64,000 nucleotides of DNA, from the NCBI GenBank assembly GCA_964016885.1, contig OZ024741.1, forward strand, positions 91,326,001 to 91,390,000, given 5' to 3'. The stretch comes from Eledone cirrhosa (Eukaryota). Position 1 is the first letter of the stretch. Each line of letters opens with the position of its first letter. Of this stretch, positions 46,181-64,000 are shown one piece after another. The notes under the pieces were generated by a model. It saw only the letters and a program-made list of their open reading frames with translations. It ran no database searches and was not told the origin of the DNA. The position numbers and the translations under genes were made by a program.

Positions 46181-48670
46181 AAATAGGCTGTCCTGTGGTC
46201 CAAACACACAGTCATCTGCCTCTTCTATTAGACAACACAGTTCACTGTCACTTCGCTTGTACAACACAACCTCACCACATAAGTGTTTACTATTACCTCT
46301 GTTGGTACATATTGTCTGATTACAACTTGTCACTTTTTAAGGGAATATCCCATGGTAAACAAAGAGATCCTCGCAAAACTCAGAAGCCTTATTGTACACT
46401 ATAATCAACCTTCATACAAACCTGTCAACTTTCCCCGTTCGGAGAGGGTGAGATATGTCTTTCTCATGTGAAAATGGGTATTGCTTTCATTATGTAAAAT
46501 CTTCTCATTTTGCCTCAATTCTCCCCGTTTTGGGGTACTTATTTTCAGGGTAGTCCCCGTTTGAAATTTTAGCGGTTGGCTTTATATTTACAATCTGAAG
46601 TAATCATATTATTTCCTTTTTGCTGAAGTGAAGTAAAGATATATATTCAACCAGAATTGTTGGTATATGTCGTCATTCAATCCTCAACTGTTAAAACATC
46701 GCTTCATATATCCACAAATGAAACAGTTCTATTCCTGTAGAAATCATTTCTATAATAAAATAAAGATGCATATACTCTACGAACATATTGAGTATCGTCT
46801 TTAACTGTAGTCACCTCCCGATATACACCAGGAATCCACCTATTATATATATATATATATATATATATATATATATATATATATATATATATATATATAT
46901 ATATAAACATTTTGTAAGTAGATGCGTATATGTATATATATGTGTGTGTGTTTGTTTCTGTTCGTATGTTTATTTGTATGCCTATAGACATAAATATTAT
47001 TATTTATGTGCATATTTATCATCGTGACAGTAATTACAATTAATTTCATTTACTTCTAGAGATTTCTGAGAGAATGTCTTCCAAAACACATACATACATC
47101 TTTATATCTGGCAATTCTCATACGTGTATATTTATAGTTTGTCTTTGAACCAGTCGCTGGCTGTTCTCAATGGCAATGTTTTCATCATTTTCTTCGCGGG
47201 CTGCATCTAAAATACCCCACTCAGATATGGGTGTGAAGCCTGCCTCTCCCCTTCCTTATTTAGCTTTTTATCAGAAATATGGTAATAAAAGAGTTATGTT
47301 TTCCATAACTCTTTTATTACCATCCCCAAACCAGTACATTCAGCTGAAAATGAATACAAGCAGTAGGCAAGGGGTTAACCCTGCGATGGACTGGCGTTAT
47401 GTCCAGGTGGAAGTAATTGGGGATTTTGTTCTTTCAGTCGCTTAACGTCAAGGAAACCAGGATACGAAACAGCTTGATGAGCCTCCGGGCAGACTAACTT
47501 CTTTTAACCCTCCAACCAGAGGGTAGTAGCATCCACTTTGGGAACCATGACTCTACTGATTCCACTAATCCATTGCCCTAGGAAAATTCTTAAATTAATA
47601 AGGGTTTTTGAATTAACATATAGTTCAAGCTCTTGTGTGAACTTGGTCGAGGAGAAAAAGAAACCCTTATAAAAGAGGTACATACAAATACTTTAACTTT
47701 GGCTGTCTTTCAAGCTTTCCTCTCACCAGTAAGCAAATACAGACTCCATGGAAATTTACGGACTGAATTAATAAAAGTAGAATTTCTTTGTTGAAATATA
47801 AATATTAATATGGATTTTTCTTTTTCATGTAACATATGGCTCTGTCTTTGATGTAATTCAGACAGTAACTTGCACAGATGCACACTGTATTAATGTAGTC
47901 ATAATCTGTTGAATTTCTCAGACAACTCTCTCCTCCACCTTCTCTCTTTTCTGTATACATACAGTACATATAATGTAAACATATCTGCAGATGGTGTATT
48001 GTCCCCCCCCCCACTATATATATATATATATATATATATATATATATATATATATATTTGAAAGAGAGAGAGAGAGAGAGAGAGAGTATTAAATAGATCG
48101 AAGGTCATATGCAGTTGTATTCAGGTTCATTTTCATCTCCATGATATGTATTTTGCTGAGGTTGTTGGCTAGGCAGTTTCCTCCTGCCCATTCCATTACC
48201 TTGAGCACGTCAGACGGTATAAACATTTTACACAACTTAAACTTAAAAATCAATATGTATACATATATTTACATATTTATGACACACATATACATGTATG
48301 TGATATATATACCCCCTTTCTCATTATATATATAAATAAAAGAGAGAGATGCATAAATCTCACAAAAGGAGGTGAACTAATAGTTTACACGTGCATATAT
48401 TTTGTTCATCTAATATTAAATTGTAGTTTATTTGTTGTTTAATACTTTAGTTGTTGGTTTATGATTGACTCATATCGGTCTACTCGTCTCTCTCTAGCTA
48501 TCCAACTGGAGAGCTTTGTATATATATAAGCATGCGTGTGCGTATACACATATGTAACATGATATTTACAATATAAATAACATATATATATATATATATA
48601 TATATATATATATATATATATATATCACATAAGAAACGGAAAATCAGTGTTGCGACGAATAACATTTATT

Positions 48671-48767
48671 AGATATATTACAATCGTTTCTCTGGCGACC
48701 AGCTCCAGGCACGATCGTTGTAATGATCTAACCTGACTATGAAATCGCAAGGTCCTCAGATATGTCT
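48671..48767 (-). ncRNA. Type-I hammerhead ribozyme with 62-nt stem II domain
   Basis: Minus strand agacatat-CTGAGGA-ccttgcga...tcgccaga-GAAAC-gatt-GTA-atatatct. Stem I 7 of 8 paired, GUA triplet, within a ~210-bp island flanked by (TA)n. Confidence 0.75.
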
Positions 48768-49221
48768 CGATTATACGAAGCAGAGTTTCCAAAGGACTAC
48801 CGCGTACGGACGCTTTAAGCATACCACACCAATTATATATATATATATATATATATATATATATATATATATATATATATATATAAATATATATAAATAT
48901 ATATATATATACATAAATATATATAAATATATATATATATATACATAAATACATATAAATATATATATATATACATAAATACATATAAATATATATATAT
49001 ATATAAATACATAAAAATATATATATATATAAATACATAAATACATATAAATATATATATATATATATATATACATAAATACATATAAATATATATATAT
49101 ATATAAATACATAAATAGATATAAATATATATATATATATATAAATACATATAAATATATATATATATATAAATACATATAAATACATATAAATATATAA
49201 ATACATATAAATATATATATA

Positions 49222-49980
49222 TGCAAAAGTTTTATTTAAAATTGTTGGGTTACAACGAGTACATATTTTATAACTGATATAAAGCACTCAACACATTTTG
49301 GAGTAGATATACGATATTAAACAAATGGAAACTATATTTATAAAACCATATTTATTTCATTATACATATTTCAGGGATACCATATTAAAAATATGGCATG
49401 CCTTCTTCAGATAAAATACAATATATAAGCAGTTTTATAAATAAATTTGACGTACCATAAATATTGATCAACTTCTATTTGAGAAGTTGGTTTGGTAGTG
49501 AAATGTTTATAAATATTTGGTGTTAAGGACAGTTAGAAAGAAAGACGGAGAAAAGGAAGAAATGTATGTAAAGAAAAACAAAGAGAGATAGAGAGAGATA
49601 TGGGAGAGAGAAATAGTGAGGAGGTGAAAAATGAGAGGCAGCTGAGGCAACAGATGAATAATAATAATTCATCATACAAATTGAGAGATTTAGGAGGGAG
49701 GGAGTACTGTAATTATTTATTTATTTATTCATTTAGTTATATATAGTGTTAAGGAGACGGAGAGAAATAAAAAATAAATAAAGAGAAAACAGAGAGGTAG
49801 AGAGAGATAGAGGTGGGGGGAAAAAGAGGTAGACCGAATAATAATAATTATACATGGGGAGGTGAGAGAAATAGGAGAGAGAGGTAAAGTTAAAGTAGCC
49901 GATACTTAAATTTCATCATGTATAGAGGGAGGAGAAGAAAGAGCTATATCCAGAGAGAAGGATGACAGATTTACAACTTT
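49222..49980 (-). mobile_element. Inverted Penelope-type 3' UTR/pLTR segment abutting the 5' end of the Naiad ORF
   Basis: Carries a family A hammerhead near its 3' end, is CT-rich on the minus strand with an internal imperfect duplication (gtgttaagga at ~49520 and ~49747), and ends in (TA)n. Confidence 0.6.
49353..49418 (-). ncRNA. Type-I hammerhead ribozyme, family A copy 1
   Basis: Minus strand tattttat-CTGAAGA-aggcatgccatat tttta atatggtatccct-GAAAT-atgt-ATA-atgaaata. 8-bp stem I, 13-position stem II with one C.C mismatch, AUA triplet. Confidence 0.85.
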
Positions 49981-49995
49981 ACATAAGTCTAATAG

Positions 49996-61705: not shown

Positions 61706-63573
61706 ATATATATACATATATATATATATATACATATATATATATATATATACATATATACATATATATACATATATATATATATATATACATATATATA
61801 CATATACATATATACATATATATATATATATACATATATATATATATATATACATATATATATACATATATATATATACATATATATATACATATATATA
61901 TATATATACATATATATACATATATATATATATATATATATATATATATACATATATATATATATATACATATATATATATATATATATATACATATATA
62001 TATACATATATATATATATATATATACATATATATATACATATATATATATATATATATATATATATACATATATATATATATACATATATATATATATA
62101 TATACATATATATACATATATATATACATATATATACATATATATACATATATATATACATATATATATACATATATATATATACATATATATATATATA
62201 TATACATATATATACATATACATATATATATATATATACATATATAATATACATATATATATATATATATACATATATATATACATATATATATACATAT
62301 ATATATATATATATACATATATATACATATATATATATATATATACATATATATATACATATATATATATATACATATATATACATATATATATATATAT
62401 ATATATATATATATATACATATATATATATATATATATATACATATATATATACATATATATATATATATATATATATATATATATATACATATATATAT
62501 ATACATATATATATATATATATATATATATACATATATATATATATACATATATATATATATATATATATATATATATATATATATATATATATATACAT
62601 ATATATATATATATATATATATATACATATATATACATATATATATATATATATATATATATATATACATATATATATATATACATATATATATATATAT
62701 ATACATATATATATATACATATATATATATATATATACATATATATATATATACATATATATATATATATATACATATATATATATATATATACATATAT
62801 ATATATATACATATATATATATATATACATATATATATATATACATATATATATATATATATATATATATATATACATATATATATATATATATATATAT
62901 ATATACATATATATACATATATATATATATATATATATATACATATATATATATATACATATATATATATATATATATATATATATATATATATATATAT
63001 ATATACATATATATATATATATATATATATACATATATATACATATATATATATATATATATATATATATATATATATATATATATACATATATATATAT
63101 ATATATATATATATATAATATATATACATATATATATATATATATATATATATACATATATATACATATATATATATATATATATATATATATACATATA
63201 TATATATATATATATATATATATATATATATATATATATATATATATACATATATATATATATATACATATATATATATATATATATATATATATATATA
63301 TATATATATATATATATATATATATATATACATATATATATATATACATATATATATATAAATATACATATATATATAAATATATATATATATATATATA
63401 TATATACATATATATATAAATATACATATATATATAAATATATATATATATATATATATATACATATATATATATATATATATATATATATATATATATA
63501 TATATACATATATATATAATATACATATATATATAATATATATATATATAAATATATATATATATATATAATA

Positions 63574-63773
63574 NNNNNNNNNNNNNNNNNNNNNNNNNNN
63601 NNNNNNNNNNNNNNNNNNNNNNNNNNNNNNNNNNNNNNNNNNNNNNNNNNNNNNNNNNNNNNNNNNNNNNNNNNNNNNNNNNNNNNNNNNNNNNNNNNNN
63701 NNNNNNNNNNNNNNNNNNNNNNNNNNNNNNNNNNNNNNNNNNNNNNNNNNNNNNNNNNNNNNNNNNNNNNNNN
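63574..63773. other. Assembly gap (200 N)
   Basis: Run of N. Confidence 0.99.
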
Positions 63774-63913
63774 ACTGTACACAATAATTTCATTATTATT
63801 ATTATTATATAAGAATTATCAAATTATAACTTTTGTTAATCATTAATTCGTCTGTCTACAATATATATATATACAATGATAATAAATGGAAACTATATTT
63901 ATAAAGCCATATT

Positions 63914-63974
63914 TATTCTATTATATATATTTGAAGGGTACCAAAACTTTGGTACGCCCTCATCAGATAAAATA
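63914..63974 (-). ncRNA. Type-I hammerhead ribozyme, family A copy 3, GAAA-to-CAAA mutation
   Basis: Minus strand tattttat-CTGATGA-gggcgtacca aagttt tggtaccctt-CAAAT-atat-ATA-atagaata; flanks homologous to 49305-49460. Confidence 0.7.
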
Positions 63975-64000
63975 CAAAGTTTGTTTTATAAATGTTGACA

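Follow-up and report, generated by a model that had tools for sequence, protein, structure and literature searches.

How does one short tract of a cephalopod genome come to hold nine hammerhead ribozyme motifs, and to which elements do they belong? The tract occupies positions 48626–64000 of a 64,000-nucleotide stretch of Eledone cirrhosa DNA (NCBI GenBank assembly GCA_964016885.1, contig OZ024741.1, positions 91,326,001 to 91,390,000 of the forward strand; hereafter ‘the window’, in whose own coordinates features are given), where unique islands are interspersed with (TA)n arrays in an AT-rich genome of 3.0 Gb. A preliminary description had proposed a possibly undescribed set of Penelope-like elements (PLEs) or non-autonomous ribozyme elements, inserting repeatedly around a PLE of the Naiad type and mobilised by its reverse transcriptase (RT) and GIY-YIG endonuclease (EN). 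We consider it probable, at roughly 0.85, that the region is a large (TA)n tract in which several PLE families of the Hydra clade have left their 3′ ends, together with part of a tandem retrozyme. The observation is real but belongs to a known kind, and the Naiad label is wrong; what is unusual are the element lengths, ribozyme stems and ribozyme cores. As the kind is known, the cluster itself is ordinary.

Hydra-clade elements in a TA-rich tract

Hammerheads were sought with a strict type-I descriptor (CUGANGA, a folded stem II of at most 130 nt, GAAA, a paired stem III, NUH and a stem I with at least six of eight pairs), adopted in place of an initial stem-II rule of four unbroken pairs, which was too strict and recovered two of the nine motifs. 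With it, the 7,517 island bases gave five motifs and each of 500 dinucleotide shuffles gave none, as did positions 1–48625 of the window; the motif density is absent from shuffled sequence. With one core deviation allowed there were eight motifs, against a shuffle mean of 0.005 and a maximum of 1 (200 shuffles); the three gained lie at 57612 (GACA), 63914 (CAAA) and 56968 (CCGACGA, with a 10-bp stem I), the first two being decayed copies of families whose copies elsewhere are intact. The ninth, at 59065, has an intact core and a mismatch at the second pair of stem I; missed by both descriptors, it was recognised by eye and by alignment. All nine places therefore show a core and three stems in type-I order, on both strands, and the earlier count of about six families is about right for them. 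The cores had been described less accurately: that at 56968 was misplaced and is not CUGANGA, and GAAA and an unbroken stem I do not hold at the other three places just named, while five motifs pass the strict scan. Rfam gave no hammerhead among the 150 of its 275 matches to the window that were listed, and in four loci bearing these motifs no match reached the gathering score.

The central element, family C, belongs to a very young family with a 6.65-kb unit, a 3.9-kb 3′ untranslated region (UTR) and a stem II of 115 nt. Its open reading frame (ORF; 49996–51870, plus strand) is 5′-truncated, keeping 624 of the 830 open codons of the full-length frame (813 amino acids from Met), and encodes RT, a CxCx5C linker, a C-terminal GIY-YIG domain, CxxC and CxH; Pfam returned no match to it. 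The UTR and pseudo-long terminal repeat (pLTR) follow at 51871–55756 (plus strand), a layout shared by full-length copies and tandem arrays, and include a (TA/TG) microsatellite tract of their own at about 53100–54950. The hammerhead (55560–55693, plus strand; here and below, from core to cleavage base) has a 10-bp stem I, the core CUGAAGA, a rod-like stem II and a palindromic 8-nt stem III; the predicted cut falls after GUU, and the motif gives way to (TA)n. Of 116,405 first-look candidates, the 71 copies that were scored are all 99–100% identical, one with a stop; the family forms head-to-tail arrays of five and four ORFs spaced by 6643–6679 nt. Units within these arrays differ by 0–2 and 1–4 of 1875 nt, against means of 7 and 9 between loci, and the window's ORF differs from the units of the intact C6 tandem array at 3 of 1875 nt.

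Judged by domain order and motifs, this element is a Hydra-clade PLE and not a Naiad. The Hydra clade has been described as having RT followed by a C-terminal GIY-YIG domain, the motif DKT, CxCx5C, CxxC/CxH, no CCHH, canonical hammerheads and insertion into (TA)n, from 27 families of 1.1–3.0 kb that include one from Octopus bimaculoides (PMC8557442). RT and then GIY-YIG stand in a single ORF in families C, H and D, and in a degenerate copy of G1, while A, B, G2 and K show the C-terminal parts of such an ORF. The family C order is RT (RWR, SDKT, YRDD), CxCx5C, GIY-YIG, CxxC, CxH. DKG is changed to DKT, as SDKT in C, H and D (one degenerate G1 copy has DTT); the CxCx5C linker occurs in C, H, B, A, G2, K and G1 and in the D copies L221/L222, its second-last Cys being mutated in the D copy L219. 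CCHH is absent as judged by eye, and CxxC and CxH lie near the C terminus (EN alignment, motif scan). Type-I hammerheads close to the 3′ terminus, and (TA)n as the insertion site, are likewise shared with Hydra, as are the tandem and inverted copies, and the family D protein resembles the published Hydra-1_Obim by eye; an 18-nt piece of the published O. bimaculoides hammerhead was not found among the loci compared. The features expected of a Naiad are lacking: the order is RT–linker–EN rather than N-terminal GIY-YIG, the motif is DKT rather than DKA, and hammerheads are present. Nor is the kind of element undescribed, as had been considered possible, since (TA)n insertion, canonical hammerheads and an octopus family are on record for Hydra (PMC8557442). 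The differences lie in size, with 3.9–6.65 kb and a stem II of 14–115 nt here against 1.1–3.0 kb and about 10–25 nt in the families listed there, and beyond what that source describes there are at least eight ORF-linked families in one genome, with altered hammerhead cores.

Most other islands are 3′ ends of different families with ORFs of their own, and not passengers of the central element as had been supposed. Longer copies of B, H, D and A (A degenerate) run upstream into Hydra-type ORFs, and so do those of G2, K and G1. PLE-type hammerheads, several (TA)n-targeting families and repeated insertion are thereby borne out. All these families are high-copy: each search gave 741–5,198 candidates, of which the best 40 were taken, so that these figures are not copy numbers. 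In comparisons of top copies, which favour young ones, cores are intact in 27–30 of 30 for A, B, D, E and H. RT-region identity among C, H and D is 38–47%, which marks them as separate families.

The 3′ end (pLTR) of family A (48626–48793, minus strand) carries a hammerhead at 48679–48759 with the core CUGAGGA (intact in 27 of 30 top copies), a 62-nt stem II and a near-palindromic 8-nt stem III, and in other copies a degenerate Hydra ORF (CxCx5C, GIY-YIG, CxxC, CxH) lies about 2 kb upstream. A short inverted piece of its tail, matched by eye against family A tails, follows at 48794–48832 (plus strand), then a (TA)n array, the insertion target, at 48834–49222. The 3′ ~760 nt of family B (49223–49982, minus strand; hammerhead 49361–49410, stem II of 31 nt) stand head-to-head with element C; the B unit is about 4.0 kb, and its core is intact in 28 of 30 top copies. 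Past element C, a second (TA)n array (55764–56865) precedes the 3′ end of family D (56867–57067, minus strand), with a hammerhead at 56978–57035 (CCGACGA, 10-bp stem I, 38-nt stem II) and a head-to-head join to retrozyme E at 57067/57068 with no TA between. Family F, a B-related subfamily, is present as a 3′ end at 58986–59181 (plus strand; hammerhead 59073–59122).

Two further islands, unlisted in the preliminary description, are cut-off ends of two more hammerhead-bearing Hydra families. The cut-off G1 end (60396–60521, plus strand) retains the 3′ half of a hammerhead with a long near-palindromic stem III; its reading as a Naiad end was rejected on the Hydra-type ORF of a degenerate copy. 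Elsewhere, 77 of the 98 G1 matches that reach the 3′ end break off inside stem II, all in a single 20-nt bin, which is a strong stop point for copying. The G2 end (60531–60858, plus strand), with a short inverted copy in front, has lost its own hammerhead, which in other copies has a CCGAUGA core and a stem II of about 95 nt. Family H contributes its 3′ ~860 nt (60854–61710, minus strand; hammerhead 60864–60918, 36-nt stem II, palindromic stem III); its unit is about 3.9 kb, with an 821-codon open frame at locus L229, and its core is intact in 30 of 30 top copies.

At the window's edge, truncated, B-related pLTRs of family I form an inverted pair, whose left arm lies inside the window (63864–64000, minus strand; decayed hammerhead 63922–63966), and the pair continues for about 230 nt beyond. 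The partner arm of the 63914 motif lies just right of the window, at L025:1090–1350, where the core begins with U and is decayed; in family I arms elsewhere the core is intact in 35 of 37. A miniature inverted-repeat transposable element (MITE) was considered for this palindrome and rejected: junctions are locus-specific and arms match within loci and differ between them, so that each such palindrome was formed at insertion.

This assignment of the islands draws on domain order, motifs and a by-eye comparison with Hydra-1_Obim, and several points weigh against it. The N-terminal RWK motif is exact in D only, with RWR in C, B and G1 and RWT in H, and the units of C, H and B (6.65, 3.9 and 4.0 kb, the latter two from hammerhead spacing) exceed the ‘generally <3 kb’ of the clade. 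F (59065) and I (63914) are tied to B by 80–84% DNA similarity and to no ORF, and none of the nine PLE ends compared resembles retrozyme E in sequence, so E's mobiliser is inferred. As to the ribozymes, self-cleavage at NUH is predicted from sequence. Minimum-free-energy folds clearly beat shuffles for the motifs at 55550 (z −6.4) and 63914 (z −3.6) only, whereas the other seven monomer folds, at z −2.0 to −0.02, are mostly no better than shuffles. Over nine motifs of B/F/I/H type, 98.7% of cells are paired and 13 are double-change cells, matched in 0 of 500 shuffles, by a control that ignores relatedness and takes the structure from one row. The stem III self-duplex energies of −2 to −10 kcal/mol are consistent with dimers.

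Variant cores and a tandem retrozyme

Over all loci, position 4 of the hammerhead core is U in 244 cases, C in 82 and in no case A or G, counts that the targeted loci inflate; in a genome sample of forty evenly spaced 10-kb stretches (400 kb, mostly from the largest contigs) it is U in 13 and C in 2. The change to C (U4C) marks families D, K and G2. In family D, a 22-mer has 636 exact copies with CCGA and 376 with CUGA. An origin of the CUGA copies by CpG decay was rejected, since the mirror product that serves as its control numbers 13 and the two forms belong to clades 12% apart: of 45 D copies sampled along C1, the 16 long enough fall into two clades (100/100), each about 5% diverse, and their similar diversity indicates that both were amplified at similar times. 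Family K, a Hydra PLE, was seen at L372 (C3:80947001–80957000, with an ORF), at L367:4746–4813 and at about a dozen other loci, and gives two matches in the 400-kb sample; its compact hammerhead has a 20-nt stem II and, in 15 of the 15 copies listed, a CCGA core with varied N7, and its covariation is weak, not above shuffles. Further CCGA hammerheads, with a stem II of 61, 79 and 81 nt, occur in L277/L127, L236 and L067.

The second variant, U3–A8, occurs in G1, whose core is mostly UUGANAA, and in one second family. At L352/L383, positions 2376 and 2971 carry a UUGAUAA core with a 59-nt stem II and a palindromic 10-nt stem III at a tandem spacing of 595 nt; no parent element was found for them among the loci.

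These variants have precedents. U4C is known from a viroid, with lower activity in vitro (PMC3088659), CYGANGA is in use as a search descriptor (PMC13481778), and covariation of U3 with A8 is known from Schistosoma PLEs (PMC4209133); PLE hammerheads also share with those described here a palindromic stem III and an unpaired base opening stem II (PMC4209133; PMC3088659). What differs is that U4C has here become fixed throughout amplified retrotransposon families or subfamilies (D, K and G2), of which we found no report in the literature searched.

Family E (57068–57869, plus strand) comprises 1.9 units of a ~424-bp tandem non-LTR retrozyme (LTR, long terminal repeat), with an intact hammerhead at 57196–57226 and a decayed one (GACA) at 57618–57648. 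It is a short, ORF-less tandem unit with one type-I hammerhead per unit, as retrozymes are: in locus L218, 18 E hammerhead anchors follow one another every ~424 nt, and the locus lacks any non-simple ORF of 200 amino acids. The suggestion of non-autonomous ribozyme elements thus holds for this one island, the others being PLE ends. The accounts of metazoan non-LTR retrozymes in PMC7229834 and bioRxiv 10.64898/2026.07.22.740005 agree with E in its head-to-tail repeats and short palindromic stem III; E is slightly longer (424 bp against ~170–400 nt reported), and differs in having inverted 5′ copies like those of PLEs and arrays that end at a single fixed point next to (TA)n. Of 102 unit ends, 23 fall at that point and 73 continue in tandem, and 15 junctions have such inverted copies. 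We found no cephalopod retrozyme in the literature searched. From the fixed end, the inverted 5′ copies and the head-to-head fusion to D, it is likely that E borrows a Hydra protein, although the D/E join, like B/C, could instead stem from a later deletion. Four sequencing-run contig sets contain D- and E-like DNA; contigs from two runs labelled as other organisms match E at high identity and may come from relatives or mixed samples.

Insertion and the role of the hammerheads

Each PLE family tested has two preferred 3′ ends, 10–200 nt after the predicted cut and followed by (TA)n. They lie at 50 and 130 nt in A (16 and 10 of 33 ends), 30 and 110 in D (18 and 39 of 76), 40 and 130 in H (22 and 18 of 50), 40–50 and 130–140 in B, 60–70 and 190–200 in C, 50 and 140 in I and 10 and 90 in G1; those of G2 lie further out (n=7). 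The 5′ ends are ragged (5′ truncation), with inverted 5′ copies, and 156 of the 158 head-to-head junctions scored join the same family, two being cross-family; the window's D/E join was read by eye, outside these 158. The two 3′-end modes match the two RT start sites and ‘tail’ described for PAc, a Poseidon element of Anolis (PMC11167929). According to that source, the anole element makes its nick in AT-rich DNA, and reverse transcription begins at two internal sites downstream of its hammerhead, which cuts only with protein, cutting being unneeded for insertion in vitro. PAc is of another clade, its tail is 30–40 nt as against about 80–160 nt here, and its ORF begins inside the hammerhead, whereas the Met of family C lies about 360 nt past the predicted cut site. 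In the tails of A, B, D, H, I and K a common short hairpin (ACTC/GCTC ... GAGT/GAGC) can be seen by eye right after the short 3′ end, as also in the published Hydra-2_Amil; it is a candidate RT-start or protein-binding signal.

On this model, drawn from known PLE biochemistry, the RT/GIY-YIG protein would nick (TA)n and begin reverse transcription at either of two fixed internal positions, 10–200 nt 3′ of where the ribozyme is predicted to cut. Copying would usually halt early, so that short hammerhead-bearing stubs dominate, and the hammerhead likely survives in each end because the predicted start of copying lies immediately 3′ of it. Insertions run on past the cut site, so their template has to extend across it; the template would most likely be an uncut read-through transcript of tandem copies, a religated circle being somewhat less probable. 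The hammerheads would probably be slow, dimeric (by their self-complementary stem III), protein-assisted processors of tandem transcripts; weak activity as dimers has been described for PLE hammerheads with a palindromic stem III (PMC4209133; PMC6765202).

Cleavage may have a stronger role: tandem transcripts would be cleaved by the hammerheads to monomers, these would form circles, and the arrays would arise by rolling-circle reverse transcription. This model was put forward in PMC4209133 and has been demonstrated for retrozymes (PMC7229834). The closer resemblance of family C units within arrays than between loci fits it, as do E arrays of at least 18 units and an E unit that folds at z −7.6; we hold it to be a serious possibility while not favouring it. 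Uncut multimers or unequal crossover would yield the same arrays, the E score is inflated by an internal TA/TG hairpin, and the part of the anole study available reports no reads ending at the cut site (PMC11167929).

The opposite reading, that cleavage is dispensable for spread and the folds are retained chiefly as structured or protein-binding RNA, with variant cores weak or dead, strikes us as rather doubtful. It would account for the greater number of exact CCGA than CUGA copies in family D and for the unpaired C3/A8 of some G1 copies, and it accords with the lowered activity of U4C in vitro and with the anole hammerhead mutants, which still insert in vitro, uncut RNA being the main template (PMC11167929). 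Against it, core changes are limited to those known to be tolerated: position 4 is never A or G, U3 accompanies A8, and the other positions are constant across families with differing stems.

It is improbable that the short islands are independent non-autonomous units, spreading like MITEs or short interspersed nuclear elements (SINEs). This is true of E, and ~365-bp palindromes of the 63914 island are found at many loci; but the ragged 5′ ends reach into ORFs in longer copies, and the locus-specific junctions of the palindromes point to each being made at insertion.

Abundance, surroundings and meaning

The 400-kb sample contains 18 strict hammerheads, which extrapolates to about 1.3e5 genome-wide (95% range 0.8–2.1e5). 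The enrichment next to (TA)n that the preliminary description expected is plain, as (TA)6 follows within 200 nt in 17 of the 18, compared with 15.6% of positions taken at random. Runs of (TA)6 or longer make up 28% of the tract and 4.2% of the sample. By length, the window's five strict motifs are a sevenfold excess over the 0.7 expected (P=0.0007); when the expectation is based on (TA)6+ bases instead, it rises to 4.6 (P=0.48). The excess being gone once TA content is allowed for, there is no special cluster, and the motifs are likely piled up here because all these elements insert into TA repeats. A special, selected ribozyme cluster is thus very improbable: the excess by length and the two cross-family head-to-head joins (B/C and D/E) that fall within a 15-kb part of the window might suggest one, but both orientations are present, decay has reached two cores, and at two ends the hammerhead is incomplete or lost. 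Least credible of all is mobilisation of the islands by a Naiad, for although Naiads too favour (TA)n and octopus has remnants of them, they have been described with an N-terminal EN, a CxC domain and then RT, with DKA, CCHH and no canonical hammerhead (PMC8557442), whereas the element here has RT before EN, DKT, CxCx5C and no CCHH, and each island traced upstream ended in a Hydra-type ORF of its own family.

Among loci L001–L330 (1.4 Mb), about 28 distinct hammerhead sequence clusters were seen, many in flanks, with a stem II of 12–115 nt. The pile-up itself extends past 64000, locus L025:3620–3670 having further hammerhead-like pieces of another family. A 200-N assembly gap (63574–63773) ends a long TA tract, and order and length across it are uncertain. 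Elsewhere in the window, a near-perfect inverted repeat of ~200 bp flanks a short TA run (33380–33584) and may be a MITE or a PLE-type inverted end. Broken non-LTR retrotransposon pieces at 29632–32336 (minus strand), which we take to be of RTE type, include a weak match to the endonuclease domain PF14529 and a C-terminal part with a PHD-like finger. SINE-like repeats at 46040–46170 and 13555–13802, one a 129-bp tandem pair, are presumably octopus SINEs.

In a literature search on cephalopod hammerheads, retrozymes and work following on Hydra, with most subscription papers, Repbase and Dfam outside its scope, PMC8557442 was the sole directly relevant source, and some families may already be catalogued. 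A 2026 repeat annotation of Octopus vulgaris lists 31 recently active Penelope-like families, the words ribozyme and Hydra being unused in the part available (PMC13282606), and a 2026 preprint derives retrozymes from pLTRs, with Hydra, in the part available, found in a coral only (bioRxiv 10.64898/2026.07.22.740005). The role of PLE hammerheads is described as still open (PMC8557442; PMC11167929).

We tentatively entertain a wider joint reading, itself rather unlikely as a whole: that the genome houses hammerheads on the order of 100,000 in a large, partly still active Hydra radiation with variant cores (U4C in D, K and G2; U3–A8 in G1) and stem II of up to 115 nt; that the variants missed by Rfam and CUGANGA searches would remain working, protein-assisted dimeric ribozymes processing RNAs of 4–7 kb; and that the same proteins would carry the cephalopod retrozyme, the D/E junction being a template switch in one insertion. 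Were this so, the CCGA and CUGA sister subfamilies of D would amount to a natural experiment on the purpose of PLE ribozymes.

An estimated 1.3e5 motifs would equal the largest hammerhead loads reported, of which axolotl, at about 120,000, is the example, and yet they are invisible to Rfam here. The at least eight ORF-linked Hydra families in this genome compare with the one octopus member previously described in PMC8557442. Family C, so close to an intact array, is a ready source for a first biochemistry of the Hydra clade, and the D subfamilies, differing at core position 4 with hundreds of copies each, offer a direct comparison of the hammerhead's role.

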